Shown: positions 4,388 to 53,044 of the stretch, piece after piece | Position numbering within the stretch: position 1 is the stretch's first letter | How the letters are laid out: every line of letters starts with the position of its first letter | Virus record (IMG/VR): IMGVR_UViG_3300032334_001128 | Span: 1-64,000 of that record | Source of the DNA: a virus | Length of the DNA stretch: 64,000 bases | Strand: one strand, 5' to 3' | The notes under the pieces: generated by a model | The model's database searches: none | What the model was told of the DNA's origin: nothing | The model's input: the letters and a program-made list of their open reading frames with translations, nothing else | Made by a program: the position numbers and the translations under genes

Positions 4388-6232
4388 ATGGCTCACTATG
4401 GAAATGTAGAAATCACAGCAACAACTCCGAAAGAGTGGCTTGCTGTTGGTGCGAAACTCGGGCAGTTGGTCAATGAGTGGTCAGGTCGTAATGACCTTGC
4501 TGTTCTGATTGCTCACGAAATCGCTCACCCGAACCCTGCTCTATACAACCCGACAAGTTCGGAAATCGAAGTAAGTATTCCTATGGCATTTGGCATTGGA
4601 ACTACCCCTGCCAATCTTGGCGATTTATCAGACAAAGCAATTCAGTATGAGAACGCTAAGGCGATTGGCGTTATCTATCACGAGAGTTGCCACGCTAGGT
4701 TCTCTCGATACTCACTCGAAGATGCGAGCAAGGCTCTAACTGAAAACGAGTTCGGTGCTCTACACCTGCTCGAAGAAAGTCGTATCGAACATTGGGGCAT
4801 TACTGCTATTCCAAGTCATAGAGAGTTCCTAAGAAGTTCTGCTCTCGAAATTGTATTGGCAGAGATTGATACAGCAGTAGAGAAGATGTCTGCTATTCGT
4901 GCTGGTGCTTACCTATCAGGTCTGACCCTTGCTCGAATTGATGCTGGCGTTCTTGATGCTATGGATTTAGTTTCAGTATCAGAGTTCTTGGATGGATTAC
5001 TTGGTGCTGAAAATGTTGCTCGCTTGCGTGAAGTGTGGGTCGAGTTTCAGGCTCACGCTGACCACGCTAACGCCGAACCCCTTTACGCCTTAGCTCGAAA
5101 GTGGGAAAGTATCGTGAAAGAACTTTCCGAACAGGCAGGTCAAGAACCCGAAAATGGTCAGGATGGATGTAAGTTCCCTATTGGTGGCGAAGATGGTGAG
5201 AGTGGCGAAAAGGGCAAGGGTCGTGGAACAGGTCGATCGATTTCAGAGATGTTGGATGCTCTAACTGATGATGCTGATAACACTATGCTCTCGTCAAGAC
5301 AGAGTTTAGATAGACAGCAGACAGCCGAAGATTGGGATAAAGAAGTCAAGGCTCGTCAGAGTTCGGCAAAGAGAAATGCTGACCACCAAAAGGTAGCAAA
5401 GCAGATTATCGAACAGAACAAAAGGGGAAATGAACCTAGTTGCGATACCAACTCAAAGTTCTTGGGTGCGAGAAAACCAACTGCTATCGAAAGGTCGTCT
5501 GCTGTTCTCGTTGCGAAGTTGCTAGAAAAGGCAAAGTATCGTGAGAGAGATGTTGTCGTTCACAATCAAGTTCTTCCTGCTGGAAAACTTAGAACTCGAA
5601 CAATCGTTCAGGCACAGGCTCTCAAAGCAAAAGGTATTCACAATCCAATCGAGATGTGGAAGAACAAAACTCGCAAGCAAACTGACGAGCCAACTTTATC
5701 TATCGGCGTGATGGTGGACATTTCTGGCTCAATGGGTTCTGCTATGGAACCAATGGCAACGACAGCGTGGGTTCTATCCGAAGCAGGTCGGCGAGTTCAG
5801 GCGAGAACATCAATGGTCTATTTCGGCTCAGATGTATTCACCACACTCAAAGCAGGGCAACACTTGGAAGAAGTGCTGACCTACTCGGCTAATGACTACA
5901 CCGAGAAGTTCGACAAAGCGTTTCAGGCAACGGATGGGATGCTCAACTTACTAAACGGAAGTGGGGCGAGATTGCTCGTTGTTGTATCGGATGGACATTA
6001 CACTCCCGAAGAAACTAAAAAGGCGAGAGAGTGGATTGCCGAGTGTAAGCGTAGTGGCGTGGCTGTTCTATGGATTGGCTACGATAAATCCGTTGGTGGT
6101 GCCGAGTTCATTATCAAGGGAACGGATGCTGAATTAGTTTCTGTATCTAATGATGTTGCCGAAGCAAGTAGGGCTATCGGCGAGATGGCGAGTAGAGTTC
6201 TGTCCAAGATGGGCGAGCGCAACTCCTACTAG
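4388..6232 (+). CDS. VWA-domain protein (CobT/NorD-like) with N-terminal HExxH motif
   Basis: MIDAS DISGS and VVSDG; YHESCHARFS...LLEESRIE; MoxR neighbour. Confidence 0.85.
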   Translation: MAHYGNVEITATTPKEWLAVGAKLGQLVNEWSGRNDLAVLIAHEIAHPNPALYNPTSSEIEVSIPMAFGIGTTPANLGDLSDKAIQYENAKAIGVIYHESCHARFSRYSLEDASKALTENEFGALHLLEESRIEHWGITAIPSHREFLRSSALEIVLAEIDTAVEKMSAIRAGAYLSGLTLARIDAGVLDAMDLVSVSEFLDGLLGAENVARLREVWVEFQAHADHANAEPLYALARKWESIVKELSEQAGQEPENGQDGCKFPIGGEDGESGEKGKGRGTGRSISEMLDALTDDADNTMLSSRQSLDRQQTAEDWDKEVKARQSSAKRNADHQKVAKQIIEQNKRGNEPSCDTNSKFLGARKPTAIERSSAVLVAKLLEKAKYRERDVVVHNQVLPAGKLRTRTIVQAQALKAKGIHNPIEMWKNKTRKQTDEPTLSIGVMVDISGSMGSAMEPMATTAWVLSEAGRRVQARTSMVYFGSDVFTTLKAGQHLEEVLTYSANDYTEKFDKAFQATDGMLNLLNGSGARLLVVVSDGHYTPEETKKAREWIAECKRSGVAVLWIGYDKSVGGAEFIIKGTDAELVSVSNDVAEASRAIGEMASRVLSKMGERNSY

Positions 6233-20462: not shown

Positions 20463-20828
20463 ATGAGAGCAGTATTTACAGATGCCAAAAAGTGTGGTGC
20501 TAGTGAACTGGTGCTAACTGAAAACTGGTACGAGCAAATGAAGGAAGCAGTTGGGGGTTATGTCGAGATGGTTCGACTAACTGATTTCCTAACTATGTGG
20601 GTCAATGAAGAAGGTCTACTTCACGACTTGCCGATAAACGCAGTTGGCTCACTTGCTTACGGAGTTGCGTTTGATGCTATTGGAACACCAATCGCAGGGG
20701 ACATCGTATTCACTGGTGGACTAAACGGCGAAGGTGAGCCAACTGGAATTACTCAGGATGGTCTTGATTGGCTAGCGATGGTTGGTCAGTACGGGATTAT
20801 TATGAACGCCAACAAGCGCAAAGACTAA
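20463..20828 (+). CDS. DUF3846-like protein
   Basis: QMKEAVGGYVEMV...MWVNEEGLLHDLPIN...IAGDIVFTG; promoter TTGCCA-18-TAAACT at 20407-20436. Confidence 0.7.
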   Translation: MRAVFTDAKKCGASELVLTENWYEQMKEAVGGYVEMVRLTDFLTMWVNEEGLLHDLPINAVGSLAYGVAFDAIGTPIAGDIVFTGGLNGEGEPTGITQDGLDWLAMVGQYGIIMNANKRKD

Positions 20829-21023
20829 GTAATCTTTAGAGAGAAGCCAGACATCCGACAGGGTGTCTGGTTTTTCTTTTACGAGCTAGAGCAATTACGA
20901 TCCTAAACTAGCTGCAGATCATCCAGGGAGATCCTGGCCGGATCCTGGTTGCAGCTCAGCTCCGGATCTAGCTCAGCTCGCGATCCGGATCTAAAAAAAG
21001 TTTTAAAAATAGTGTGTTTGGAC

Positions 21024-21052
21024 TTGCGGAATAGTTTGGTTTCCTATACCAT
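21024..21052 (+). promoter_or_regulatory. sigmaA-type promoter of the candidate ncRNA
   Basis: TTGCGG-17-TACCAT. Confidence 0.6.
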
Positions 21053-21057
21053 AGAGA

Positions 21058-21281
21058 TAACAAGGTTCCGACGGGAACTTTGGAGTGTGGCTGAATAGTT
21101 CTGAAAGTCAAATAGGCAGAACAAAGCAACGCCTGAACTTAGCGGTTCACCTTAGCGGGTAAAGGGCGGGTGTGCTCAAAGCGGTACTTAGAGACCACAT
21201 TGACTAGGCACTTCTGGTAAAAGCAATCCAGACACTCACTATGAACACCACGAAGCCCCTTGCGGAAACGCAGGGGGTTTC
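21058..21281 (+). ncRNA. candidate ~220-nt highly structured ncRNA
   Basis: promoter, multi-branched helices with two identical TTAGCG loops, terminator at 21253-21281; no ORF or RBS. Confidence 0.65.
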
Positions 21282-21460
21282 GTGCTTCTGGCCAGCTTCA
21301 CGGATCCATGGCCGGCCGGATCAGATCAAGCTAAGATCAATGCTAGGATCTTAGTTAGACACGCCAAAAAATTATTTCCAAAATACTTGACAAAATGTCA
21401 TTCCCGTATGGTACTATTTAGGTATGGCAAAAAGCCACAGACAATTAGGAAAGGAACCAA

Positions 21461-21730
21461 ATGTCTCAATTAGTTAGCACAGTAGTTAGATTTGTCGCAC
21501 AGGAAAGAAATGTCAAGGAAGATTCTGTTACTGGAGTTCCTAGACTTATGGAAATTATCGGCTTCCTATGCGAAGATAAAATGGCAGACCTATCGGCTTC
21601 ATACGAAATGGCTGTTCTAGCCTTGCGTATGTATGACGCCGAACTTGCCGTAGTCAAGCAAGTTGAAAAGGAAAAGCAGGCTGAAATCAAAAAGTACTGG
21701 GACACAAAACTTGCTGAGTTCCCTGCCTAA
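21461..21730 (+). CDS. hypothetical protein
   Basis: GGAAAGGAA RBS; TTGACA at 21387. Confidence 0.7.
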   Translation: MSQLVSTVVRFVAQERNVKEDSVTGVPRLMEIIGFLCEDKMADLSASYEMAVLALRMYDAELAVVKQVEKEKQAEIKKYWDTKLAEFPA

Positions 21731-23855: not shown

Positions 23856-24416
23856 ATGAAGAGGTTCATCACAATAGCTAGTGTGCTCCTACTACTAGCT
23901 GGATGTTCATCAGCTGCAGCTGGATATGATCGAAAGCCGGTCGATCCTGTGCAGAAATTGAGTATTGTAAAAGCTAAGACTTTTACCCAAAAGGTAAAGT
24001 CTCAGCGTAATGCAATACGGATGAAGCAGGTTCTAAAGTACCTACGGACTAGAGTGGATCGGACATCGTATGTCTTTTCCGGATCTAGCCCTAGGGGATG
24101 GGACTGCTCGGGATTGGTACGCTGGACCTATGAACGGTTTGGCCTAGAAATCCCTCACTCTGCCAATAAGCAAGCGCATATTGGTAAGCGTGTATCTCAC
24201 CCCGTCCCTGGGGATATAGTTGTGTTCGCTTATAACGGCAGCACTAACTTTTATCACGCTGCGATCTATCTAGGGAACGGAAAGATCATTAACGCTCACT
24301 ACGGAGCTGGTACCACGATCATTCAACCATTGAGTGATTACAAAAGTGGCCAGATCCGGTTTGTTAGGGTTATTGATCAATTTGTCCCTAAAAAAGTTGG
24401 ATCGTATTTCAACTAA
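23856..24416 (+). CDS. NlpC/P60 (C40) peptidoglycan endopeptidase, putative lipoprotein
   Basis: GWDCSGLV catalytic Cys, HAAIYLGNG His; signal peptide with lipobox LAGC. Confidence 0.9.
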   Translation: MKRFITIASVLLLLAGCSSAAAGYDRKPVDPVQKLSIVKAKTFTQKVKSQRNAIRMKQVLKYLRTRVDRTSYVFSGSSPRGWDCSGLVRWTYERFGLEIPHSANKQAHIGKRVSHPVPGDIVVFAYNGSTNFYHAAIYLGNGKIINAHYGAGTTIIQPLSDYKSGQIRFVRVIDQFVPKKVGSYFN

Positions 24417-24499
24417 ATACGGAAAGAGCTACAGCTTACGCTGTAGCTCTTTTTCCGTTTTAGAGTTGCTTTTTGTTTTGTAATCTGCTACCATCATAA

Positions 24500-38656: not shown

Positions 38657-41600
38657 GTGAGTCAAAATCTTAGTGCCCTTGTTGCCGCGTTAGAAACTAT
38701 CAACCAGAAAGATCTGGAGCTCAGCGTTGTTGAGACCGAACAGATATTCAAGAAGGGCGTTGTAACTCACGTTCTCCAGCAGAATGCTCTAGTTGCATCA
38801 ATCCGACAGGTGGCAATTAAAGACGTTCTAAAGTTCACCGACCGCTACATCGCTAGCAAGCTAGATAACGAAGACCCTCGTGATGTTTTCTTCAACGCTG
38901 CACGCGAGGTCACAAGTTTTGTTGAGTACGCTGTCAACGGTCCAGCTCTAGAAAGAGTGATGGCAGTTGAGCACAGGGACCTACTCCCAGCGGCTCACCC
39001 GTTCTCAACAAAAACCATTAGCCCAATTACCGCATCAGCACTTCGCGTACGCAATGCTGCCTGGGTAGCCTGGGACCCACGTATTACTGATGATGCAGCA
39101 CGTAAGGCTGTATTTGACGCATACGTACAGCAACCAAACACAACCAAGGGTTTGTATGCAGTTGCACGCCTTGAATCACTAACTGCTTCTGTTGTTCCAG
39201 CAGACATCAAGCTTGGTGCAGTTACAGCTGCATTTGGCGTTGGTAACCCATTTGCTGGTAACAACTCTTCAGCTGCTCGTTCTGCTCGTGCTAAGTTGCA
39301 GCGTCGTGACCGTAAGGGTCGATTTGCCGAGATGGGTGGAGGATCTCGTATCCTTGCAATGATCGGCAACATGATTAAGTCATTCACCGGTAAATTTGCT
39401 GGTATCCCTCAAGACAGCAACAACATTGAAGTTGAAATTGCTGGCAACTCAGATCTTCCTGGCGGTATTTACTCTGTACCAGCATCAAAGGTTGAAGGTC
39501 TTAAGGCTATTCTTCGTGGCAACATGGTATCTCCTGCAGTACCAGCCAACTCACGTAACTCACGTGCAGCTATCGACCTACAAGATCTACTTGCAAGCCG
39601 TAAGAGTGCTCCTACTGGTTGGACAGATAACGGTGATGGTAAATTCACATCTGCAGACGGTTATTCAGTTTCACAAATTGATATCCCTCAGGATGCAACT
39701 GGAATGAATGATAAAAATGGTAACTTTTTACCATTTGAACTTCAAGGCAAATTTATCGGTGCTGGTCCAAACGGATCATACGACCGATCTAAGCCTGTGT
39801 TCGAACTTAAAGATGCTAACGGCAACGTAGTTGGTCGCGCTCAGGAATGGGCAAACCTTCAGAAGCTTGCAGCAGACTCAGACGAGTCTAAGGGTGCAGC
39901 TCCTAAGACAAAGGCACGTCTAAGAACCCCACAGCCTGCTGGCTTCCGTCAAGAACCTGGCGACAACACAGAGCCTATTGACGTAGTTGGCGATTCTGAA
40001 GTAGAGCCGCTACCGGCACCTCCACGTAAAGAAGATGATAATTTTGAAGCTAACTACATAAACTATTTAGCCACTAAGGATTACAAAGCTAAGGACGTTA
40101 CAGATACCGATGGCAAGTACTTCCTATCTGAGCAAGAGCTAGCCGATGGCGGTAAACTTTGGCAAGTAGGCGACGATATGGACGACAACGGTCCTCAGTA
40201 TGTAGCCCAAAAAGCAGACGGTACTTTTGAAGTTAATGGTAAGACTTTCTACCCAAAGAACTACGGCGGGGATGTTATTTCTGCTGCAGATGATGCCTTT
40301 AGTACTGCTGATAAGAATAGATCTGCTGGCAAACGGGGCTTTGCACAGGAGGCTGGTAGCGAAGAAAAAGTTAACAGCGAAACACTGGACGGCTGGGCAA
40401 AAAAGTACGGTGCAGTAGAAACTACTACTCCAGATGACACTGCTAAAAACATGAGAAGATGGGCATTAGATGGCCATGATATTGTTATGGAGAACGCTAA
40501 TACTGATTCTATTAAGCCTTACAATTTTAAAATAAAGATTACTGAGGGCCCAGACGCTGGTAAGTTCTACTGGGGATCAAGCGTTGCAGATATCCCATCT
40601 AACTATCAGTACGGTCTATCTAGGGAAGAGGATTTAGAACAACTCTTTTCATTCCCTAAAAATATAAAACGTAAAAAAGATGGCTTAGAGCCACTAAAAA
40701 CAGATAAAAATCAGCAACGCGATAGCAAGATTGAAAGAATTAAAAACAATCGTGCTCAAAGAGCTAAAGTAACTAATGCTATAGCTACTGCAGACCCAAA
40801 AAAGATTCAAGAAGCCTTAGATGATGCAGCAATTCCAGAAAAATACCAGGATGTTCTAAAAGCTCAGCTCAAAAAAGCTCAGGATTTTGAAAATGGATTG
40901 AGCGAAGATCCGCACTGGACTAAAGACGAAATTGCTGCTATCGAACAGATGGCAAAAGATTACGGCTATGAAGGCGATATAGTTCCTAATGAAGAAGGCG
41001 TGTACTCATTTACGCTAGGAAGCGAGGATGACTATAGTTGGGCCGAGCTAACTATATTCCCTGGCAATAGAGCTGACTTAACTCAGTATACTACTGGTGC
41101 ATATAGTCCTGGTGGATGGGATGAGCCTCCTAGCCAGGATGTAGATTCAGAAACTAGATCAATCCCTGTAGGGTCTTCTATGGACGATCTCGAGAATATA
41201 TTTGCTGGTGGAGATAATAGCTCCGATGCGCCAGAACCACCAGAGCGTGACGAAGACGAGGGCTTCTACCAAAAGCCGGGCGAAGAACCAGAAATTAAAA
41301 CCGTTGATGACTACGTAAACTCAAAGTACGGTAGAGGTTTCAAGGAAACAACTACTGAAGCTGATAAAGCAGCTGGAAGACGCGTTTGGTTCTATGAAGA
41401 CACAGACACTGGCGGTGGCGGTGAGGTCACTCAGAATGCTGACGGCACTGTTGATATTTCAGGTACCACTTTCTCTCAGGGTATGTTTGGCGAGAGACAA
41501 TCAGAATTTGATGACAGCTTTGACCCTAACTTCTATGGCGAGGGTGAAGACGGTAGAGTCGGTGCAATTGACGACGCCTTTGGTACTATTAAGTACAAAA

Positions 41601-44600
41601 CAGGTGATCCTGGCGTACCTGACTCTGACGGCTTCGAGCAGGCTCCTGGCCTCCCTGGATTCAGACAGAAGTCCGGTAAGGGTAAATTTGAACTACCTGA
41701 AGACTTTGACAGTGTTAAGAACTGGAAAGATCTTGGCAATGGTAAGTACGAGTACACCTCTAAAGACGGACGTCTAAAGGTAAGGTACAACGAAGAATTT
41801 GACGCCGAGCCTGACGGTGAAGGCGGTATGCGTGGCTACGAAAACTCATACGCTGAGATTGAACTAGACGGTGAAGTAATTGAAGACAGTCTAGATGCTA
41901 ACGGTGCTTCTTTCCTTTTTGGTGAGGGTGAGAGAGAATTCGAACCAGCTGAGCTAGCTGACAGAGTAGTTAAGTCTCTTAAGGATGCCCAGAGCAAGGG
42001 CTTCAAGCAAGAAGCTGGGAAAGACTCAGAGGCCCAGGCCGAGTCATACTTAAATGAACTAGAGCAAGATGCTTCAGAGATTCTCGATAGAAACCCGATG
42101 GGCACCACTGAATGGACATCTAAAGATGGAAGAGTTAAGGCAGTTCACGGTGATGACGGCAGTGCTGGTGAATACGTCGAGGTATTCCTAGATGGTAAAT
42201 CCATTGGAGGTGTTGGTAAGTATTCCCCTGTGGAAGATCCAAAAACTGGAAATTATAGTGAACCATGGGATAGCCCTGATAAAGAGCCAGGTTGGGTAGC
42301 TGATGGGATCTACGAGCTTCTAAAGGAGAACCTAGCTACTGAAGGCTTCAAGCAAGAAGCTGGTAAAGAAAAATTTGAACTTTCAAAAGAGTTTTACAAC
42401 GACAAGAACTGGTCTAAGGAACCATTTAAAAATCCTGAATGGACTTCTGCAGACGGTAAGGTAAAAGTCAAGTACGTCTCTGATGGCGACGTAAATGATG
42501 AAGGACGTCCAGTTGACACTTCTTACCTAGAAGTATCCGTTGATGGCGAAGTCATTGGAGATATTTCCGCACCTAATGCCCTTCAGTACAACGCAGGTGA
42601 TCCTAACGACCCTGAATACATGAGGACCGGAATTCCAAGTTCTAAACTAGAACTAGACGAGTACGGCGACGATGTCCAGGCTATGGTTGACAATCACCTA
42701 AAGTCTAAGGGTGGCTTCAAGCAGTCTGCTGGTGAAGCAGGTGGAGTTCGCAAGTCTCACATTTCTGACCTAGACAACTGGTCTAGTGACCCATCAGATG
42801 GTGGAGAAGGTACATACACCTCTCCAGATGGACGTCTAACTCTCGAGGCTATGGCTGACGCTGACACCGACGGTGAAGGCGGAATGAAGGATCTATCTCG
42901 CATTGCTGTTTCTTATGACGGTGAAGAGATTGGAACTCTACCTAAACTTGGCGTAATGTACAACGAGGCAGATCTTGCTGACGACGTCGACAATCTAGTT
43001 AGCAAGTACCTAGAAAAGCAAACTGGTGGTTTCAACCAGCAGCCTGGTTCTGGCAGACGAAAAGTTGGAAACTTTAGAGTAATTCCTAGAGAAGAATTCA
43101 CCGACATTGTTGGTGCAGCTGATACTTCTGATGGCGGAATTGTACGTCTTGAGAAAACTAAGAACGGTACAATTACCCCTACCGCTTATAACAGATTTGG
43201 TCAGGTGATGGCTCAGAGCGAGCCTACAACTGATCTAGACGCTGCTCTAAAAGAGGGTGAGCGACTGCTATCTGGTCTTGAAGGCAAGGCCCAGGACAGC
43301 CCTGAAGTTTCTGGATTCTCTCAGAAGCCAGGCGAAGAGCCACCAGCCTGGACTAAGGATCCAGCTACTCCTTTGCAGTACAACAAGCTTCAGGGTATTC
43401 TTGACAACCAGGCTGACAGGCTTCCAACTGATGTCCGTGACATGGTTGAAGAAGCCGTTGCTAACAAGGCTCTAACCAAGGGCGAGATGGGCAAGCTCCT
43501 TGCTGAGGTTGGTAAGAGTGCTGATCTTTCAATTAGCTACACTCCTAAGGTTGATAAGGCTCATGCTTCTGATAGAGCTAACTGGAAGTATGATAAAAAA
43601 TCTAAGAGTTACTCATACACCTCTGCTGACGGAAGACTGTCTATTAATGCTGTGTCTCCAGAAGACGGTGCAACTACAGTAACTTATGACGGTAAGCCAG
43701 TTCAGATATCTAGACCTTACGGCAGTGAGATCTGGCAATCAGTCGATAACGGTGGAGTTCCTATTGGAGATTCTGTCGATACTGCTATCAAAGATCGACT
43801 AGATTTTGAAAATAAAACAGGCATCTATTCAGATAAGTCAGGCTTCGCTCAAGCTCCTGGATCTACTTCAAAAGCAATCCGTACTCCTCAGCCACAGGTT
43901 GACGAGGGTCGTGCGGCATCAGCTAAATTTGCCAAGGACGGTTTCCTAGAACAAACAACCAACTACGGCAGTGGTGACTCTGACTTGTCATGGGAAATTG
44001 ATGTTGATGACATGGAAAGTGCTGCAATAGTTGTTAAGTACTCTCCTAACCGTGGAACATGGTACGCATACGCTCAGTACAGAGATAAGAGAGGTAATCT
44101 CAGTACTGCTGAAAATGGCGACTTAGGAGACTTTAAGACTGCAGAAGAAGCTATGGCTGCAGCTAGTGCTTTTAATAACGATGAAGATCGTATGGATGAG
44201 TACAATGAAATCATTCGCGATGCTAGAAAAGCTCGTATGCAGGCAGTTGCAACTAAGTTTGAAGAGGCAGTTGCAAACAAAGACTACGATGCTCTAAAAG
44301 AGCTTTTAAATGATGAAGATGTTCTAACTTCAGAAGACTCCGATTTCTTAGAGAATGACATTCTAGAAGAGATGAACTCTATATCTCTTGAAGAAGAGCG
44401 CCAAAGCGATGTTGAGGATGCTCTCGCTTCGAATGATAAAGATAGATTAGAAGAGCTACTGGGTGATGACGACTACGAGGAGTATCACTCTAGGCTGGAA
44501 GACGCTATCAATGACTTCAAACATGGAGAAGAAGATCCAGACGGCTTCGAGCAAGCTCCAGGTAAAAAACTAACTCCTCGAAACAACCAAACTCTCAAAC

Positions 44601-47600
44601 CAAACAGTATTGGTGGCTACGATACAGGAACCGACGGGGATGGCTATATAGAAGTAAATCCTAACAAGGACGGAACATGGGAAGTAAGTCACGCATATAA
44701 CTACCTGATCGATGAAAATGGTCCTGAAGGTGTTATGGATGAGGGCTCACAGACTTTCAAGACTAAAGAAGAAGCTATGGCGTATGCTAACGATAAGCTT
44801 GAATATTACAATAGTCAGGAAGTCTATGATGATGCCTCTGATCACGCTATGGAAGCTGCATACCGTGGTGGAATGTACGATGAGGGCTTTGAGCAACGTC
44901 CTGGAAGACAAGTCAACATTGGTGATTTTGAGGTCTTTAAGGGTAACTATTCTCTAAGTGATAAATTTGAGGACTTCAATGTCAGAATTGAAAAGACTCC
45001 AGAAGGTAAATGGAAAGTAACTCCATCAGTCTTTGGATTCCCTGGAAACGATGTAAACCGCCGCGAGGACTGGTTTGATCAAACTCCTCAAACATTTGAC
45101 AACTTAGAAGATGCTAAGAAGTCAGCTGTTAAAGAAGCAAACTATCTAAGTAATGACACCAATAGATCCGGTGCCCTCGATGAGAGGGGACCAGGTTATG
45201 GTTTCGCTCAGAAGCCTGGAAAGAAAGTAAGTCCAGAAGTTTCTGCTAAGAACAAGGAACTAGCTAAGAGACTTATGGAAAAGGGTGCTTTTGATCCTGA
45301 TGGTGGTTTAGATGAAGATGACCCAGACTATGAAGCTCTTCAAGATATTAAGGATCGTAACGAGGCTTACCTAGATAACCTTGCTGCTACAGATCCAGCA
45401 GAGTATTTCTATACTATTGCTAAAGCTGGAGAGTTTATGGGCGCTGAACCATCTGACTTCAGACGTATGATTGAAAAGCCATACAACTACCATGCTGAAG
45501 TTCTTGAATCAGAGATGAACAGCTGGGTCGGAGACAACAACAGCGGCTACTGGTTAGATGAAATCGGTCACGGCTCTGAGGGCGAAGGCTTCGCTCAAAA
45601 AGCTGGAACTAAGAAAGTAAATCCAAAGGCAGCAATTCAAAAGATTATTGATGCAGCTCCTAAAGATCAGGGCTTTGCTCAGCGTGCTGGTAAAGAAGAC
45701 GGTTTAAAGAGCAACGGTACAATTGCTGGAGATATCTATGATCCAGAGACCTACGGCATGATGGACTGGGCATCTAAATGGACAGATTTCTCGGTTTCTG
45801 AAGGAGAAAATAGGCTTGGCGAGTGGTGGAAGTGGCAAGAAGAGTTTGGTCAGTGGGCAGTTAGCGAAGATCCAAAAGAAGCTGCGGGTCAGGGTCTAGT
45901 TGACGTCTACACTCTTCGTGATATTTTAGATGGAAACGTTGGCACGTTTAATCCTCTAAGCAAGAGAGATTCCGGTTGGCGTGATCGAGGAGATGGTAGT
46001 CACGAGTTTAAATCTGAGACTATAAATATATTCCCTACTAAAAATGATGACGGAACATTTGATTACACCATTACTAATGCGGCTACCGATGAGTTGATTG
46101 ACACAATCGAAAACGTAGGTGCGGCTGATAGTGTTGAAAATCTTATTTCTGGTGAATTTAGATCAGATTTGGAAGATATTGGCTATGAAGTCAGTGGTAG
46201 ATCTAGTAATGCTGTTAATCTATTCTCAGATCCATATGACAGAAGTAGAGGGTTTGCTCAAAAGTCTGGATCTGACTCCGGGCTATTAGAAGAAAATCCT
46301 GCAGCTATTAAACTCAGCGGTAAATTTAGTGATACCGGATCTGGTGGAATAAACTATCAGGATTCTGAAGGTAGATCCAAGGGTAGCGTACAAATGTTCT
46401 TTACTAAAGATAAGAATGGTAAAGAAAGCTACGGTTGGATGGTCGAGTACCTACCATCTAATGGAGAAGGTATTGTACGTAAGAGTTTTATGCAAAAATA
46501 TGACGGTGCCTACGAAGGAAAACCGTGGATTGCAGCTGAAAAACATCTAAGAAATCTAATTGCTAAAGACAATGCTAGCCAGAACAAACAAAAAACTGGT
46601 GGATTCTCTGCTAAGCAGATGGAACCTGCAACTCCTGCCCAGTATGCTCTTCTACAAGAGTACGCTGACGAGAGAGTACCAGCTGATGATCTAACTGCAC
46701 AGGCAATTCAAGACGCACTTGCTAACAGGAACCTAACTAAGGCACAGATGAGTGCTCTTATTGGTCCTATGAACGATGCTGAATTCAAGCCGGGCGTTGA
46801 CCCTAACAAGCCAAGCGACCGTGCTCTTAAGTCATTAAACAGCAAGCTTGTCACTAAAGATCTAACTCCAGAAGAAGTCAAGGACATCCTAGACAACCTA
46901 CCGAACATGAACCGTGCAGAAGTTGATGCTCTAAACGACAGGCTTCGCAGGAAGAAGGATCGTCCAGAGACCATTGGTTTCGCTCAAGAGCCAGGTGGTT
47001 CTGATGACGAGAACATGGAGCAGCTAATGGGCGACGACCTAGGCAACGACAGAAACGTTGAAACCCAGGGCGAAATGTCTGACTACTACAACTCTCTCAA
47101 AGGTGACCGTATTGCAGAACTTCAAAAGAAACTCGATGCTGCAAATGAAGAAATCAATATCTTCGGTCTAGATGACTTGCAAGAAATGCTAGACGAGGCT
47201 GACCCAGATAGCGAAGCTAACCTAAAGAGATATGGTAAAACTTGGCCTGCAGAGCAGTCTTACATTGCAGCTCAGGATCTTAGAGACGCTGCAGAGCAAA
47301 TTAGAAACAGCAATAACCCTAACGTTGACAAGAGTCTAGCTGATGATCTAGACAATGCCGCCAATCAGGTTATGAAGCGTATGGAAGATAGGATCAATCC
47401 ACTACTGTTCGCTTCAGTTGAAGATCCATATGGTACCAATTTTGATCTAGGTGATGTAGACACAGATCTAGACCAGATGCGTGAACTCTACTTTGAGACT
47501 GACACAGATGAGATCAAGAAATATCTAGATCAAACTGGAGTCTACGGTGACGTTAGATCTGGTGGAGCAGAAGCAGTAGTTTCTGATAAACCAGAAGAAG

Positions 47601-50600
47601 ATGGCGAAAACAAAGGCAAATACAGAGCTTCTGTAAGTTACGGTGGCGGAACTGCTGCTGATGATCAGGTAGAGTACTTTGATGACCCAGAAGATGCTAA
47701 AGACTGGGCAGCTAATGAAGTTTCTAACTTAAGTAGCTATCACCAAGTAGGTCTTACTCACCCAGACAAATCTTTCTCAGATCTTGATGCAGAAAGAGAT
47801 GCTGCAATTGCAAATGGCACTGAGCAGGAGTTCCTAAGTAGACTATCTGACGTAGCAAAAATAATGAGAGATCAGAGAGGCGATGAAAAGCTATCTCGTG
47901 AACTTGATGACTACGTTGAACGTGCCCAGGCAGCTCTTGACAAGAAGAAGGGCAACGCAGGAGGTCAAGGCTTCGCTCAAAGACCAGGATCTGATGAGAA
48001 CGAGCAAGATATAATCGACGACATCAAGTCTCGTGGACAAGATATCATTGATGGTCTTAGAGACAATGGCAAAATCGATGTTGAAACTGATGAAGAGTTC
48101 GAAGCTAGAATTGCTGACTATCAAAGGAACTTGGATGGTCTACTATTCCAACTAAACTTTGGCAATAGCGATACTTTAGAGCGTTTTGGGATGGATTTCG
48201 ATTCCACAGCATGGACAAGTTCTGGTAATGACGAACTTCTTGCTCAGCTAGAAGATCTAGTTCCAGAAGCTAGAAGACGTCGTAGTAGTGCTATTTATGG
48301 ATCCCGTGGCTTTGCTCAGGAACCAGGCTCCGGAACCCCTGTCAGAAATGACAAACTAAACCCAACCAGTGATGGTGGATTTGGTACTAATCCTTACTCT
48401 GATAGTCAAATTGAAGTCAATCCTACCAAAGATGGTAAGTGGGAAGTAAATCATGCTTATAACTACATGATTGACGAGAATGGTCCTACAGGTACCATTG
48501 ACGAGGGTTCTAAACTCTTTGATTCCAAAGAAGAGGCTCTTGCATTTGCTAATGAAAAACTTGACTACTACAACAGTTCTGATGTAGACAGAGATGCAGA
48601 AGATCACAATGCTGATCGTTATACTGGGTTTGATCAAAAGCCAGGCAACGCAGTTGTCTCTCCTAAGATGGGTGAACCAGCTTCAGATGCTCAGTACGAC
48701 TACCTCAAAGAACTTGGCGATACTCAGGATGGAATCAGTCCGGATCTAGCTACTGCAATCCAGGATGCTCTATCAAGTAAAAACTTGACAAAGGCTCAGG
48801 TGGGTGCATTGCTAGGACAACTTAGAGCTCTAAAGCCTAAGGCTGGTATTGATACAAGTAAGCCGACTCCTCGTCAAATTCAGAGAGTCAAAGATCTTGC
48901 GAACTCACTTGGCCTAAGCCCTGCTGAAAAGCGTAAGCTTGGTCTTAGCAAGGTGAGCAGCATGTCTTCTGATGAAGTTCAGAAGCTCATTGACAACCTA
49001 AAGCGTAGAGGCGGGGGAGACGAGGGGTCAGGTGGTGTCCGCCCAAAAGGTAGACCCGGCGATAAGCCGGGTGGTGGCGGATCAGTAGGTCAAGTACCCG
49101 GAAAATTAATTTCTTATACTCCTAGAAGTAAATTCTTAGAAAAAGATAGATCTGACGCTAAAGAAATTTATGACAGAGTAAATAAGAATCTTGACAAATA
49201 TGCTAGTCAGGATTCTGAATTTGCAAAAAAATTAGAAGAGTCTAAGAAGAAGTACCCTGAAGGCATCTACAGCATGATTGACATTGCTGCAGATCCTAAC
49301 TCTACTCAGCAGCAAATTGACGATGTTATAAAAGACGTCAATGATCTTAATAAAGCTCTGCAGAGTAGTAAAGCGGATGTATTTGCTGGAGACACTAATG
49401 TATTAGATGGTCTTGCTAAATATAAATTTGCCGAGCTAACCCCAGAAGTTAATAAACAAAAACTATCTGGAGGAAGCAAGAAGCACTCTGAAGGTGACAC
49501 TGTAGATTCTAGATTTAGTGCTATGTATAACCCTAACCTAGTTGAATACAAGAGCTCAGAAAATGGTAGGGGCTCCACTAATACAGCAATTGGTTATGTA
49601 ACTACCGATGCTTTAGAAGGCATGGCTGGAAATGAAATTCGTAATGCAAGTGTAGTTAACGATATTGCAAAAGATCTTAAAAATGGAGTTGGATTTAAAG
49701 AACCGATAATCATGATTTACGATCCAAAAACCGGTAAAGCATTTATTACTGAAGGTAACCATAGACTTGCTGCAGCAAAAAAGGCTGGAGTTAAATACGT
49801 TCCAGTAAGAATTGTAAATCTAGATGTAGCTCCAGGTGACCAGATTAAGATGGAGCGAGTTGGTAAGCCTCTAGGACGTAGAGCTGCCCCTATTGGCGGA
49901 GGTGAGTGGTCTTCAACAATTCAGCCTAGTCAAATATTTGATGACTCTCAGCTTCTCCAAGAAGATGCCGGAGGTTTTGCTCAAGCAGCCGGATCACCTA
50001 GAGCCAAGAGATTCAACGAAATGGCGGCTGACCGTAAGTTTGTAGACGCTACAACTGAAAAAGATGCTAAGAAAGATATTAGCCGTTGGAGTAGAGAAGA
50101 AAACGGTCTAAAAACTGAAATTACTGAACGTAATGGAAGATTCACTGCCAAGTTCAGCGATAAGCCTAAAGAAGAAGTAGACCTTGGTATCAATGAATCT
50201 GCAGCGTTTAAAGAGGCAGAACGCCAGATTATGCTCAGAACCGCTGAGTTTGACACTGTTGACCTAGATGGCTTTGCTCAAAAAGAAGGCGACAAGGGTC
50301 CTAAGCGTCAACGCGTTCTAGAAGCCATCGCTTCAGTAAGCAACGCCCTCGGTCTATTCGACGAGTGGAAGGGTAAGACTACCAAGGTTCGTGAAGATGT
50401 AAACAACGTTGGCGAATTTGTCAACAACATGCGTTACGTCAAGGCGGATCTTGAAAAAGCAATCAATAACCTAAAGAACTCTAAGGGTGTTGAAGAGAAG
50501 ATGGCTGCCATCTCTGAGCTGACTGCTGCAATCAAGAAAGCAAAACTTGCTGCAAGAATTGCTAAGGATCGTTGGAAGAGAAATCACCCTGAAGACCTGA

Positions 50601-53044
50601 AGCCTAAGGCTCCAAAGACTCCTAAAGCTATTGAAGCTCCTACAGTTGAAAAAGTTAGCAAGAAGTTTGAAGACGATTTAACTGCAGCTGAAGAAGCAAT
50701 CAGTCCTACCCCTGGACGACTTCCTAATCCTGAGCCTTACAACATTCCACGTGGTGGAGTGTACATGTATGACGAAAACGGTAACCGCCTACGTCAAGAT
50801 GGCACACCTTTTAGACCGATTGGTCCTTCAGATCTGGATGGCTTCGCTCAGTCCCTACCGACCGAGACAGTATCTCCTAAAGATTTCAAGGCTAGACAAG
50901 CTAAAGCTATAGCAGATAACAAGGCTGCTGCGGCTTCTATGATGGATATTTTCCGTAAGCGTATAAAGAACCCAGCTTGGCACAAATGGCAAGCTCCTTA
51001 CTCAGATTATCCTGCCGACGATCCAATGACTGCTCCGGTTAATCCGAGCAACATGCCATTTAACCCTTCATCTAATCATCAATATAGTGCGATAAACCAC
51101 CACGCTCTAGCTACTGCAGCTGCTGAACGTGGCTATACAGACCCTCGCTGGATGACTTCAGCACAGGCTAAAAAACTTGGTGCTACTGTTCGTGATGGCG
51201 AGCAGGGTGTGAAGATCATGACATTTATGACTATTGAAGATGAAGAATCTGGAGAGCGCTCAATAGTCCAAGTACCTAGATTTGTTTTTAACGCTCAGCA
51301 AATGGATGGTCTAGAGCCTTATAGTCCTAGCCAACAACCAAAGATGGATGCTGCACAGGCTATTGATTTCGTTCTTGGTAGATTTAGTGAAGCCGAGAAA
51401 AAGCGTGGCAAGAGTGGAAATATAAAGATCTGGGAGGATCTGTACGGTAGTGACACCCCTATGTGGAGTCCTGCAGGAGCTCGTAGGCCTGAAAATATTA
51501 GAATGCCTGATCGTAGCAAATACGACAGCCCTGAAGATTACCTATATAGTTTATTCCACGAACTAGCCCATGCAACTGGAACTCAGGATAGACAGGGTAG
51601 AGAAGCCCACCTAGCTCAAGCGCGTGGGGACATGACTATGGGTCAGCTAGCGGTTGAAGAAGCCACTGCCGAGATTGCTTCTCAGCTATTACTACAGCGT
51701 CTAGGTCTAAACTATAATCCAGACAGAACAGCCGAATACCTAAGATCTCACGATCTTAATGATGCTCAGCTAAATGAAGCAATGGCAAAAGCAGAGCTAG
51801 CAGTTGATTATGTACTAGGTAACGATGTTCTCCCTCCATGGCATAACAGCTCTAGCGACATGATGGAAGCTGCAGAAGTCCCTGGATATACTCCACCTGC
51901 TTCACGTAGCTGGAACCCTAATACTAACCTAGGTCCTCAGGACGCTCCTTCAGCATTCCCTGCTGGAACTCCAGGATCTGATGAAAACCCAGAAGTAACT
52001 GGTTTTGCTCAGAAGCCTGGAAAGTTTGACAGAACTGGTAAAAAGTCTGTAACTGATAGCAAGACTGCAACAGAAAAAGTTATGGCCGGTCTTCTTGAGA
52101 AGATCAAGCAGGGAGAGACTCCTTGGCGTAAGCCTTACAAAGAGGGCGAAAAGTACGCAGGTATAGCTCTACCTAGAAACCCATCGTCTAAGCACATCTA
52201 CTCGGGTGTAAACGCTATGGCTCTAAGATTTGCTCAAGAAGAGAATGGCTATAGCGATCCTCGATGGATGACCTATAACCAAGCTTCGGCAATGGGTGGT
52301 CAGGTACGTAAGGGTGAGAAGGGTACATTCATTCTTGTTCCTATGCGTATCACTCAGCAGGATGAGAAAGACCCAAACAAGAAGCGTTCATTCACCATGT
52401 TCAAAGCTACTGCAGTATTTAACGCTGAGCAGATTGATGGTCTGAATCTACCTGAACTATCTACAGAGAGCCTCCCTAAGATGACTCCTCTAGATGCACA
52501 GGAATTCATTGTTGAGCGTTACAAGAAGGCAATGGCAGCTCGTACCGGCAAGGCTCCAAACATCAAACATACTTATGTTGGAAGTGGTGGAGCACACCAG
52601 GCTCCAAACTGGGGAACCTTATCGGATGAAGTTACTCTACCTAACCTAGAGCAATTTAATTCTCCTGAAGATCTGTTTGACACAATCGCTCACGAACTTG
52701 TACACAGTACAGGCCACCCAGATCGTCTAGACAGATCGGATCTAACCAAGGACTATGCCAATGATTTAGAGTCTAGAGCTAGAGAAGAACTTATTGCTGA
52801 AATTGGAGGTGCTCTACTAGCTAATATGTTTGGTGTAGATGCAACATTTGATAACAGTGCAGCATATGTTCAAAGCTGGCTAAAGCACCTACAATCCAAC
52901 CCAGACGAGATTATCAATGCAACTAGCCAGGCCCAAAAAGCTGTAGACTATATTCTTGGTACAGATCTTGGAGACTGGAGCCCGATTGACGGATATAGCA
53001 TTGGAAATGCTGTCCAAAAACCTACAGAAGAAGAGGAGTCATAA
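38657..53044 (+). CDS. 4795-aa polyvalent head-module protein with 25 GFxQxxG linkers, a ParB-like domain and two ArdC-like (ssDNA-binding + zincin) units
   Basis: single open frame; ITEGNHRLAAA (ParB/Srx); PWRKPY...YSGVN...DPRWMTYNQ...VRKGEKG and AHELVH/FHELAH...EELIAE. Confidence 0.85.
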   Translation: MSQNLSALVAALETINQKDLELSVVETEQIFKKGVVTHVLQQNALVASIRQVAIKDVLKFTDRYIASKLDNEDPRDVFFNAAREVTSFVEYAVNGPALERVMAVEHRDLLPAAHPFSTKTISPITASALRVRNAAWVAWDPRITDDAARKAVFDAYVQQPNTTKGLYAVARLESLTASVVPADIKLGAVTAAFGVGNPFAGNNSSAARSARAKLQRRDRKGRFAEMGGGSRILAMIGNMIKSFTGKFAGIPQDSNNIEVEIAGNSDLPGGIYSVPASKVEGLKAILRGNMVSPAVPANSRNSRAAIDLQDLLASRKSAPTGWTDNGDGKFTSADGYSVSQIDIPQDATGMNDKNGNFLPFELQGKFIGAGPNGSYDRSKPVFELKDANGNVVGRAQEWANLQKLAADSDESKGAAPKTKARLRTPQPAGFRQEPGDNTEPIDVVGDSEVEPLPAPPRKEDDNFEANYINYLATKDYKAKDVTDTDGKYFLSEQELADGGKLWQVGDDMDDNGPQYVAQKADGTFEVNGKTFYPKNYGGDVISAADDAFSTADKNRSAGKRGFAQEAGSEEKVNSETLDGWAKKYGAVETTTPDDTAKNMRRWALDGHDIVMENANTDSIKPYNFKIKITEGPDAGKFYWGSSVADIPSNYQYGLSREEDLEQLFSFPKNIKRKKDGLEPLKTDKNQQRDSKIERIKNNRAQRAKVTNAIATADPKKIQEALDDAAIPEKYQDVLKAQLKKAQDFENGLSEDPHWTKDEIAAIEQMAKDYGYEGDIVPNEEGVYSFTLGSEDDYSWAELTIFPGNRADLTQYTTGAYSPGGWDEPPSQDVDSETRSIPVGSSMDDLENIFAGGDNSSDAPEPPERDEDEGFYQKPGEEPEIKTVDDYVNSKYGRGFKETTTEADKAAGRRVWFYEDTDTGGGGEVTQNADGTVDISGTTFSQGMFGERQSEFDDSFDPNFYGEGEDGRVGAIDDAFGTIKYKTGDPGVPDSDGFEQAPGLPGFRQKSGKGKFELPEDFDSVKNWKDLGNGKYEYTSKDGRLKVRYNEEFDAEPDGEGGMRGYENSYAEIELDGEVIEDSLDANGASFLFGEGEREFEPAELADRVVKSLKDAQSKGFKQEAGKDSEAQAESYLNELEQDASEILDRNPMGTTEWTSKDGRVKAVHGDDGSAGEYVEVFLDGKSIGGVGKYSPVEDPKTGNYSEPWDSPDKEPGWVADGIYELLKENLATEGFKQEAGKEKFELSKEFYNDKNWSKEPFKNPEWTSADGKVKVKYVSDGDVNDEGRPVDTSYLEVSVDGEVIGDISAPNALQYNAGDPNDPEYMRTGIPSSKLELDEYGDDVQAMVDNHLKSKGGFKQSAGEAGGVRKSHISDLDNWSSDPSDGGEGTYTSPDGRLTLEAMADADTDGEGGMKDLSRIAVSYDGEEIGTLPKLGVMYNEADLADDVDNLVSKYLEKQTGGFNQQPGSGRRKVGNFRVIPREEFTDIVGAADTSDGGIVRLEKTKNGTITPTAYNRFGQVMAQSEPTTDLDAALKEGERLLSGLEGKAQDSPEVSGFSQKPGEEPPAWTKDPATPLQYNKLQGILDNQADRLPTDVRDMVEEAVANKALTKGEMGKLLAEVGKSADLSISYTPKVDKAHASDRANWKYDKKSKSYSYTSADGRLSINAVSPEDGATTVTYDGKPVQISRPYGSEIWQSVDNGGVPIGDSVDTAIKDRLDFENKTGIYSDKSGFAQAPGSTSKAIRTPQPQVDEGRAASAKFAKDGFLEQTTNYGSGDSDLSWEIDVDDMESAAIVVKYSPNRGTWYAYAQYRDKRGNLSTAENGDLGDFKTAEEAMAAASAFNNDEDRMDEYNEIIRDARKARMQAVATKFEEAVANKDYDALKELLNDEDVLTSEDSDFLENDILEEMNSISLEEERQSDVEDALASNDKDRLEELLGDDDYEEYHSRLEDAINDFKHGEEDPDGFEQAPGKKLTPRNNQTLKPNSIGGYDTGTDGDGYIEVNPNKDGTWEVSHAYNYLIDENGPEGVMDEGSQTFKTKEEAMAYANDKLEYYNSQEVYDDASDHAMEAAYRGGMYDEGFEQRPGRQVNIGDFEVFKGNYSLSDKFEDFNVRIEKTPEGKWKVTPSVFGFPGNDVNRREDWFDQTPQTFDNLEDAKKSAVKEANYLSNDTNRSGALDERGPGYGFAQKPGKKVSPEVSAKNKELAKRLMEKGAFDPDGGLDEDDPDYEALQDIKDRNEAYLDNLAATDPAEYFYTIAKAGEFMGAEPSDFRRMIEKPYNYHAEVLESEMNSWVGDNNSGYWLDEIGHGSEGEGFAQKAGTKKVNPKAAIQKIIDAAPKDQGFAQRAGKEDGLKSNGTIAGDIYDPETYGMMDWASKWTDFSVSEGENRLGEWWKWQEEFGQWAVSEDPKEAAGQGLVDVYTLRDILDGNVGTFNPLSKRDSGWRDRGDGSHEFKSETINIFPTKNDDGTFDYTITNAATDELIDTIENVGAADSVENLISGEFRSDLEDIGYEVSGRSSNAVNLFSDPYDRSRGFAQKSGSDSGLLEENPAAIKLSGKFSDTGSGGINYQDSEGRSKGSVQMFFTKDKNGKESYGWMVEYLPSNGEGIVRKSFMQKYDGAYEGKPWIAAEKHLRNLIAKDNASQNKQKTGGFSAKQMEPATPAQYALLQEYADERVPADDLTAQAIQDALANRNLTKAQMSALIGPMNDAEFKPGVDPNKPSDRALKSLNSKLVTKDLTPEEVKDILDNLPNMNRAEVDALNDRLRRKKDRPETIGFAQEPGGSDDENMEQLMGDDLGNDRNVETQGEMSDYYNSLKGDRIAELQKKLDAANEEINIFGLDDLQEMLDEADPDSEANLKRYGKTWPAEQSYIAAQDLRDAAEQIRNSNNPNVDKSLADDLDNAANQVMKRMEDRINPLLFASVEDPYGTNFDLGDVDTDLDQMRELYFETDTDEIKKYLDQTGVYGDVRSGGAEAVVSDKPEEDGENKGKYRASVSYGGGTAADDQVEYFDDPEDAKDWAANEVSNLSSYHQVGLTHPDKSFSDLDAERDAAIANGTEQEFLSRLSDVAKIMRDQRGDEKLSRELDDYVERAQAALDKKKGNAGGQGFAQRPGSDENEQDIIDDIKSRGQDIIDGLRDNGKIDVETDEEFEARIADYQRNLDGLLFQLNFGNSDTLERFGMDFDSTAWTSSGNDELLAQLEDLVPEARRRRSSAIYGSRGFAQEPGSGTPVRNDKLNPTSDGGFGTNPYSDSQIEVNPTKDGKWEVNHAYNYMIDENGPTGTIDEGSKLFDSKEEALAFANEKLDYYNSSDVDRDAEDHNADRYTGFDQKPGNAVVSPKMGEPASDAQYDYLKELGDTQDGISPDLATAIQDALSSKNLTKAQVGALLGQLRALKPKAGIDTSKPTPRQIQRVKDLANSLGLSPAEKRKLGLSKVSSMSSDEVQKLIDNLKRRGGGDEGSGGVRPKGRPGDKPGGGGSVGQVPGKLISYTPRSKFLEKDRSDAKEIYDRVNKNLDKYASQDSEFAKKLEESKKKYPEGIYSMIDIAADPNSTQQQIDDVIKDVNDLNKALQSSKADVFAGDTNVLDGLAKYKFAELTPEVNKQKLSGGSKKHSEGDTVDSRFSAMYNPNLVEYKSSENGRGSTNTAIGYVTTDALEGMAGNEIRNASVVNDIAKDLKNGVGFKEPIIMIYDPKTGKAFITEGNHRLAAAKKAGVKYVPVRIVNLDVAPGDQIKMERVGKPLGRRAAPIGGGEWSSTIQPSQIFDDSQLLQEDAGGFAQAAGSPRAKRFNEMAADRKFVDATTEKDAKKDISRWSREENGLKTEITERNGRFTAKFSDKPKEEVDLGINESAAFKEAERQIMLRTAEFDTVDLDGFAQKEGDKGPKRQRVLEAIASVSNALGLFDEWKGKTTKVREDVNNVGEFVNNMRYVKADLEKAINNLKNSKGVEEKMAAISELTAAIKKAKLAARIAKDRWKRNHPEDLKPKAPKTPKAIEAPTVEKVSKKFEDDLTAAEEAISPTPGRLPNPEPYNIPRGGVYMYDENGNRLRQDGTPFRPIGPSDLDGFAQSLPTETVSPKDFKARQAKAIADNKAAAASMMDIFRKRIKNPAWHKWQAPYSDYPADDPMTAPVNPSNMPFNPSSNHQYSAINHHALATAAAERGYTDPRWMTSAQAKKLGATVRDGEQGVKIMTFMTIEDEESGERSIVQVPRFVFNAQQMDGLEPYSPSQQPKMDAAQAIDFVLGRFSEAEKKRGKSGNIKIWEDLYGSDTPMWSPAGARRPENIRMPDRSKYDSPEDYLYSLFHELAHATGTQDRQGREAHLAQARGDMTMGQLAVEEATAEIASQLLLQRLGLNYNPDRTAEYLRSHDLNDAQLNEAMAKAELAVDYVLGNDVLPPWHNSSSDMMEAAEVPGYTPPASRSWNPNTNLGPQDAPSAFPAGTPGSDENPEVTGFAQKPGKFDRTGKKSVTDSKTATEKVMAGLLEKIKQGETPWRKPYKEGEKYAGIALPRNPSSKHIYSGVNAMALRFAQEENGYSDPRWMTYNQASAMGGQVRKGEKGTFILVPMRITQQDEKDPNKKRSFTMFKATAVFNAEQIDGLNLPELSTESLPKMTPLDAQEFIVERYKKAMAARTGKAPNIKHTYVGSGGAHQAPNWGTLSDEVTLPNLEQFNSPEDLFDTIAHELVHSTGHPDRLDRSDLTKDYANDLESRAREELIAEIGGALLANMFGVDATFDNSAAYVQSWLKHLQSNPDEIINATSQAQKAVDYILGTDLGDWSPIDGYSIGNAVQKPTEEEES

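Follow-up and report, generated by a model that had tools for sequence, protein, structure and literature searches.

A probable stand-alone gene for a divergent short-form manA RNA in a freshwater Actinomycetia phage

Results

Organization of the locus

The DNA analyzed here, a stretch of 64,000 nucleotides referred to as the window, makes up the first half of an IMG/VR virus record of 126,293 bp. In its early-gene region, among a gene for a DUF3846 protein and several small unannotated open reading frames (ORFs), lies a compact non-coding cassette whose parts follow one another in the order terminator, GATC-rich spacer, candidate promoter, structured RNA, 16-bp hairpin, spacer and TTGACA promoter. 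The individual features are as follows.

20463-20828: upstream gene, encoding a DUF3846 protein (Pfam)
20846-20880 (+): terminator of the upstream gene, a hairpin followed by a T-run (from sequence; inverted repeat I1)
21024-21029 and 21047-21052 (+): candidate promoter, TTGCGG and TACCAT separated by 17 nt (from sequence; weak -35)
21057-21244 (+): the RNA proper, a short-form manA RNA of ~185 nt (Rfam family RF01745, covariance model R1, RNA-library contigs)
21249-21284 (+): GC-rich 16-bp hairpin with a weak U-tract, likely terminating the RNA (from the fold)
21387-21473 (+): start signals of the next gene (21461-21730), comprising a separate promoter with TTGACA at 21387-21392 and a ribosome-binding site (from sequence and the ORF list)

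The terminator at 20846-20880 would, judging from its sequence, insulate the RNA cassette from upstream transcription, and the next gene is independent of read-through from the RNA because it has a separate promoter and ribosome-binding site. The RNA itself was originally predicted to have its own promoter, and the two hexamers are indeed present; the assignment is plausible only, as the -35 hexamer has three of the six consensus bases and a consensus scan of the region was silent. A transcription start 6-8 nt past the candidate -10 element would coincide with the conserved AACA at the 5' end of the RNA, and relatives that are promoter-driven have a -10-like element equally distant from the conserved 5' end. 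At the other end, the 16-bp hairpin likely terminates the RNA gene, and stand-alone relatives have clear hairpin and T-run terminators at the equivalent place. The predicted lack of an ORF holds in so far as the only ORFs to overlap the element are short mechanical ones (37-53 aa), none with a ribosome-binding site.

The cassette is bracketed by spacers rich in GATC and AGCT (20885-20995 and 21297-21352), which contain short direct and inverted repeats, for example TCCGGATCTA, present twice. The idea of a mobile cassette was considered and set aside, the flanks holding no convincing terminal repeats.

A full-length match to manA RNA

When positions 20800-21450 (651 nt) were scanned against Rfam in E-value mode, the one strong match was to the manA RNA family (RF01745), at 21064-21242 on the plus strand, over the entire model (1-192 of 192), with 53.7 bits and an E-value of 6.6e-13; in a scan of the whole window the same match was the best of any Rfam family (E 6.5e-11). 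This score lies 1.5 bits below the gathering cut-off of the family (55.2 bits), an operational threshold that corresponds to no structural feature, and the default scan, which applies gathering thresholds, is silent on the element for this reason. Among nine clade-mates scored against RF01745, six exceed the cut-off (63.6-69.4 bits) and the other three reach 48.2-52.2 bits, one of these being interrupted by the end of its contig. The Rfam cut-off thus conceals genuine divergent members of the family.

The Rfam alignment of the window RNA contains the landmarks of manA: the 5' hairpin with its GACG loop, the closing helix (its 3' strand and the GUG-N-CUGAAUA sequence that follows it) and the GGUA..AAUCC hairpin. 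The core helices P1, P2, P3, P4, P8 and P9 are all found, and the first junction has cleanly lost its third hairpin. The element does encode a folded RNA, a compact relative of manA in a family that is already known. The original prediction had put forward a novel RNA and had listed a hit to an established Rfam family among the outcomes that would count against it; the full-length RF01745 match is such an outcome, and the claim of novelty is refuted. Its statement that the element is not a tRNA, a tmRNA, an RNase P RNA or a known ribozyme is supported by the Rfam scans and by ARAGORN, which found neither tRNA nor tmRNA within the window. One further Rfam match in the window, to the BjrC68 sRNA at 24416-24474 on the minus strand, is weak, with 27.9 bits where the cut-off is 39 (E 0.004), and is probably due to chance.

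A discrete short-form clade

A sequence pattern with the manA signature matched more than 118 viral contigs, mostly at 167-178 nt, and two narrower patterns applied to viral contigs and metagenomes recovered a separate set of ~160-nt relatives; in combination the pattern searches gave 20 distinct short-form sequences, every one of which has only two hairpins in the junction. A covariance model (R1) built from 18 of the 20 scores the window RNA at 190.6 bits (21057-21244, plus strand). Since R1 scores fall into two separate groups, 186-225 bits for clade members versus 33-63 bits for canonical marine manA RNAs with none between, the short form is a discrete group within manA.

The RNA is single-copy in the 126-kb genome, in which R1 finds no second match, and R1 has no match in the 129 kb of Actinomycetia phage DSL-LC01, the closest named relative of the window phage. 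A blastn search with 20850-21400 against 50,697 phage records was empty; no phage in that collection therefore has the short form at an identity detectable by blast. Neither did the short-form pattern match any of the species-representative bacterial and archaeal genomes. The general manA pattern gave 11 matches in the same genomes, and the eight that were tested lacked an Rfam manA match, so that these were taken as chance.

Fold, covariation and pseudoknot

The RNA strand of 21058-21285 has a predicted folding energy of -87.9 kcal/mol, compared to -62.9 +/- 4.5 kcal/mol for dinucleotide shuffles (z -5.5), and none of 200 shuffles was as good. For comparative support we used two alignments. 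A1 holds 18 distinct relatives, and the structure counted on it was taken from the window together with the Rfam alignment. Of its cells, 94.8% are paired, and both sides have changed in 29 of 55 pairs; none of 500 shuffles matches this, and slid controls give only 34-45% paired. In A2, which aligns canonical and short-form RNAs jointly in 84 distinct rows, the core helices and the pseudoknot occupy the same columns, with 90.2% of cells paired and double changes in 46 of 55 pairs. The fold score and the compensatory changes among the gathered homologs bear out the structure originally described; the prediction of a stand-alone non-coding RNA is supported as well. The elements of the fold, all on the plus strand, are listed below.

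21061-21082 (+): P1, a 5' hairpin (21062-21081 when read directly from the sequence) whose GACG loop is invariant; double changes in 6 of 9 pairs among relatives
21083-21087 with 21233-21237 (+): P2, which closes the whole fold; 97.8% of cells paired, 3 of 5 pairs covarying in A2
21090-21127 (+): P3 arm, consisting of an internal loop with the conserved sequence GGCUGAAUA, a stem of 6 bp and the 13-nt loop L3
21098-21103 with 21117-21122 (+): P3 stem; 6 of 6 pairs covary, 100% of cells paired
21106-21111 (+): pseudoknot strand 1, AGUCAA in L3, pairing with 21200-21205; 100% of cells paired, 4 of 6 pairs covary
21130-21134 with 21164-21168 (+): P4 junction (CGCCT/AGGGCG), spanning 21130-21168, with only two hairpins inside
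21135-21148 and 21149-21160 (+): P5 and P6, with identical UUAGCG loops that share a conserved UAGC core
21172-21176 with 21207-21211 (+): outer stem of P8, GUGCU/GGCAC, which covaries (U-A to G-C in five sequences)
21181-21185 with 21194-21198 (+): inner stem of P8, enclosed by the outer stem and with the variable loop L8; the arm spans 21172-21211
21200-21205 (+): pseudoknot strand 2, UUGACU, within the 3' internal loop of P8
21213-21232 (+): P9 hairpin, with a near-invariant GGUAAAAG..AAUCC motif; 100% of cells paired

Read directly, the region contains most of the motifs originally listed at the positions given for them, including the TTCTG/CAGAA helix and the CTGG/CCAG hairpin. The predicted small junction near 21170-21199, of GTG/CAC around a TGCT-CAA-AGCG hairpin, does not hold; comparison supports instead the two-part P8 arm with its covarying outer helix, for which 5 of 5 pairs covary in the family-wide alignment A2. 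Of the repeated TTAG loops, two are kept among relatives as the UAGC core of P5 and P6, while the third, in L8, is specific to the window and varies freely elsewhere. In P9, two pairs of the window RNA are compensatory relative to the other members of A1.

The pairing of AGTCAA with TTGACT, proposed as a kissing interaction, is real. It occurs in three versions within the short form (AGUCAA:UUGACU, AGCUAU:AUAGCU and AGCUGU:ACAGCU), and GGCAU:AUGCC of canonical manA occupies the same columns of A2. These six pairs between L3 and P8 would lock the fold, and the covariation is compatible alike with their formation within one molecule or between two. The L3/P8 pairing is probably the one labeled 'pseudoknot?' in the drawing of manA by Weinberg et al. 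(2010, PMC2864571), and what carried a question mark there is now backed by covariation.

In canonical manA RNAs (L003 and others in A2), GGCAU of the pseudoknot shares positions with the 5' strand of P3 as drawn by Rfam, a weak stem with two G-U pairs; because the strands overlap, the two pairings may be alternatives in those RNAs. In the short form, the P3 stem and the pseudoknot strand do not overlap.

Phage lineage and genomic setting

The major capsid protein of the window phage matches only actinophage records and is 71% identical to that of DSL-LC01, a phage from Dishui Lake with a predicted Actinomycetia host (PMC10611076). All occurrences of the short form to date fall within a single lineage of freshwater phages, 110-140 kb in size, that is related to DSL-LC01. 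All short-form contigs have genes in common with the window phage, as determined by tblastn of contig ORFs against its genome, the kinship being expressed in TerL proteins that are 76-78% identical, a portal protein that is 68% identical, or matches to the 108-117 kb region. The capsid protein of a complete 132.6-kb relative is 76% identical; five partial contigs with the short form, which are fragments, gave no match when searched for a capsid gene.

The location of the RNA varies within this lineage. It lies directly upstream of terL in four contigs and among tRNA and tmRNA genes in most other relatives. A same-strand tRNA gene follows within 200 nt in 15 of 24 short-form loci, and in 12 of the 24 a tRNA terminates at the 5' end of the RNA, as compared to only 7 of 115 canonical manA loci with any tRNA at all. 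The borders can be exact to the nucleotide: in Rfam coordinates, contig L124 has a tRNA at 5000-5073 and the RNA at 5074-5255, and in L143 the RNA (226-407) stands between tRNAs at 151-218 and 408-481. The remaining relatives have clear intrinsic terminators.

The 126-kb record as a whole contains no tRNA genes, where relatives have tRNA arrays beside the manA-like RNA. It does contain a tmRNA gene with the tag ANTSAYALAA (L146:6567-6910, about 110567-110910 of the record), and in the relative L134 a tmRNA also adjoins the manA-like RNA. Two very large ORFs (38657-53044, 4795 aa, and 53276-57988, 1570 aa) separate the portal and major capsid genes in the window; the corresponding place in DSL-LC01 is taken by a hypothetical gene of 9.9 kb.

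RNA-library contigs

Parts of the stretch are contained in 20 public runs, which are labeled as metagenome or as aquatic, freshwater, pond or lake-water metagenome. Contigs from four freshwater metatranscriptome libraries, each from a different study, were compared with 20800-21500. They measure 142-165 nt and lie wholly within the RNA, and its flanks have zero cover by RNA-library contigs in this interval. One contig is >99% identical over 21074-21233, one spans 21082-21204 and then runs into adapter, and two derive from relatives at 90-95% identity. These contigs hint at a discrete, abundant RNA; they are a hint and not proof because they are assembled, of low depth and strandless, with ends not given and DNA carry-over possible. 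No joints indicative of a circular form occur in the RNA-library contigs, which cannot settle circularity.

Discussion

Comparison with cage-forming manA RNAs

With high probability, the element is a stand-alone gene for a ~185-nt structured RNA, a divergent short form of manA (RF01745), in a 126-kb freshwater Actinomycetia phage. Interest in this family stems from a 2026 preprint on RNA-only cages, in which canonical manA RNAs are reported to form closed oligomers based on pentamers (pentamers, decamers and a 60-mer cage); these assemblies have been shown in vitro only (bioRxiv 10.64898/2026.07.01.735769). The cage interfaces comprise L5-L7' and L8-L9' kissing loops, a contact between L6 and a GNRA receptor, and L3-L8', and the manA variants solved by cryo-EM differ in their peripheral helices and keep the core (same preprint).

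The short form has much in common with canonical manA: a GACG-type 5' hairpin, a closing helix followed by G-U-G-N-CUGAAUA, a P3 arm, a multi-stem junction at P4, a two-part P8 arm, a P9 hairpin with GGUA...AAUCC, a homologous L3/P8 pseudoknot, and residence in phages. The differences lie in the periphery and the setting. Its P4 junction has two hairpins, whereas the canonical junction has three (P5, P6 and P7), and its L3 is 13 nt long as opposed to about 5. Canonical RNAs have GUGGUG in L5, usually a GNRA loop in L6, an ACCA-containing L7, and CUGU and ACAG in L8 and L9; in place of the first three, the short form has a UAGC-type loop twice, and its L8 is variable and not complementary to the invariant L9, where the canonical loops form a CUGU/ACAG pair. 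By eye, the UAGC loops have no consistent Watson-Crick complement within the RNA, and no L8/L9 complementarity is conserved across the clade. The hosts differ as well (freshwater actinophages for the short form, marine cyanophages or a gamma-proteobacterium for canonical manA), as does the genomic setting, a stand-alone gene or tRNA array versus a 5' UTR.

The core fold is therefore common to the short form and the cage-forming RNAs, and the cage interfaces lack a recognizable short-form counterpart except possibly L3/P8. As the L5-L7' and L8-L9' loop pairs are absent, self-assembly may not apply to the short form. That it self-associates in parallel with the closed oligomers of canonical manA we regard as less likely than not, since the known interfaces are missing. 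The scaffold role suggested in the original prediction would fit the preprint on canonical manA, with the reservation that the short form is without the loop pairs used there. A reduced natural variant that lacks the known assembly loops offers a ready test of which contacts assembly needs.

A stable trans-acting RNA and its alternatives

We propose that a weak sigma-70-like promoter of its own drives the window RNA and that transcription would end at the 21249-21284 hairpin. In the relatives, the RNA would be cut from tRNA transcripts by RNase P and RNase Z, a release by tRNA-processing enzymes suggested by the fact that it abuts tRNAs to the nucleotide. The product may act in trans as a stable particle and not as a riboswitch of the downstream gene, and its invariant loops could be presented to the RNA's own copies or to a host or phage factor. 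A more far-reaching reading, which we consider unlikely, is that the short form is a natural minimal manA that keeps only the core and L3/P8, has its cage loops swapped for twin UAGC loops, and arises as a stable RNA from tRNA operons (through RNase P and RNase Z) or from a mini-gene of its own, as one case of a class of trans-acting particles found throughout phages.

An RNA family unrelated to those already described would agree with the empty Rfam scan at gathering thresholds, but we give this reading next to no credence in the face of a full-length manA match at E 6.6e-13, clade-mates that exceed the Rfam cut-off, and a core and pseudoknot common to canonical manA. A cis-acting riboswitch or other 5'-UTR element controlling the downstream gene deserves a more careful comparison, as Rfam classes manA as 'Cis-reg' and the account of the family by Weinberg et al. 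(2010, PMC2864571) places manA RNAs in potential 5' UTRs and proposes a riboswitch. Canonical members, moreover, may be read through, since a terminator-like hairpin occurs within 90 nt downstream in only 10 of 84 canonical loci. The short form is arranged differently: in the window, the RNA is directly followed by the 16-bp hairpin and then by ~100 nt of GATC-rich spacer and the separate TTGACA promoter before the next gene is reached, and what comes next in relatives is a tRNA gene or a terminator, not a coding gene. Within a single lineage the RNA also occupies three genomic positions beside unrelated genes. A 5'-UTR switch does not fit this context, and we judge it very improbable; the arrangement, as read from sequence, supports a stable RNA that would act in trans. 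An own promoter and terminator, or exact abutment to tRNAs, calls the 'cis-regulatory' label into question for at least the short-form branch.

It is also conceivable, if improbable, that the RNA is a trans-acting decoy or sponge, its identical loops capturing either a defense component or an RNA-binding protein of the host, a role of protein sponge, decoy or defense sensor that the original prediction had offered as pure inference. The same conserved UAGC-type loop is displayed on two hairpins, with no complementary partner seen by eye within the RNA, and the gene stands alone or, in relatives, forms part of a tRNA array; such arrays in phages have been implicated in countering defenses that target tRNAs. 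Against such a role, there is no candidate protein partner and no known binding motif, no neighboring gene co-varies with the RNA, and the phage genome shows no enrichment of antisense targets, as judged from the reverse complements of all single-stranded segments (5' leader, loops and 3' tail). The sponge overlaps with the trans-acting short-form manA RNA that we prefer, and the two are compatible.

Implications

The finding adds no new RNA class. What is new relative to the literature found is the host range in freshwater actinophages, the reduced architecture, and the organization as a stand-alone gene or member of a tRNA array; among the papers found to mention manA RNA, none describes it in freshwater actinophages. 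Should L3/P8 form between molecules, or a host factor bind the twin loops, RNAs of the manA type would be phage-wide trans-acting particles rather than riboswitches, and such particles would exist in hosts as distant from each other as cyanobacteria and actinobacteria.

The tRNA cluster of phage T4 likewise encodes stable non-tRNA RNAs, species 1 and 2 (rnaC and rnaD), which are released by tRNA-processing enzymes; to our knowledge, no function has been assigned to them, and their likeness to the short form is one of genomic arrangement only. Among the phages of the short-form lineage, three contigs (L129, L136 and L139) have a second conserved non-coding element of ~55 nt between the manA-like RNA and a downstream tRNA-Asp; the tRNA operon may thereby encode a further small RNA.
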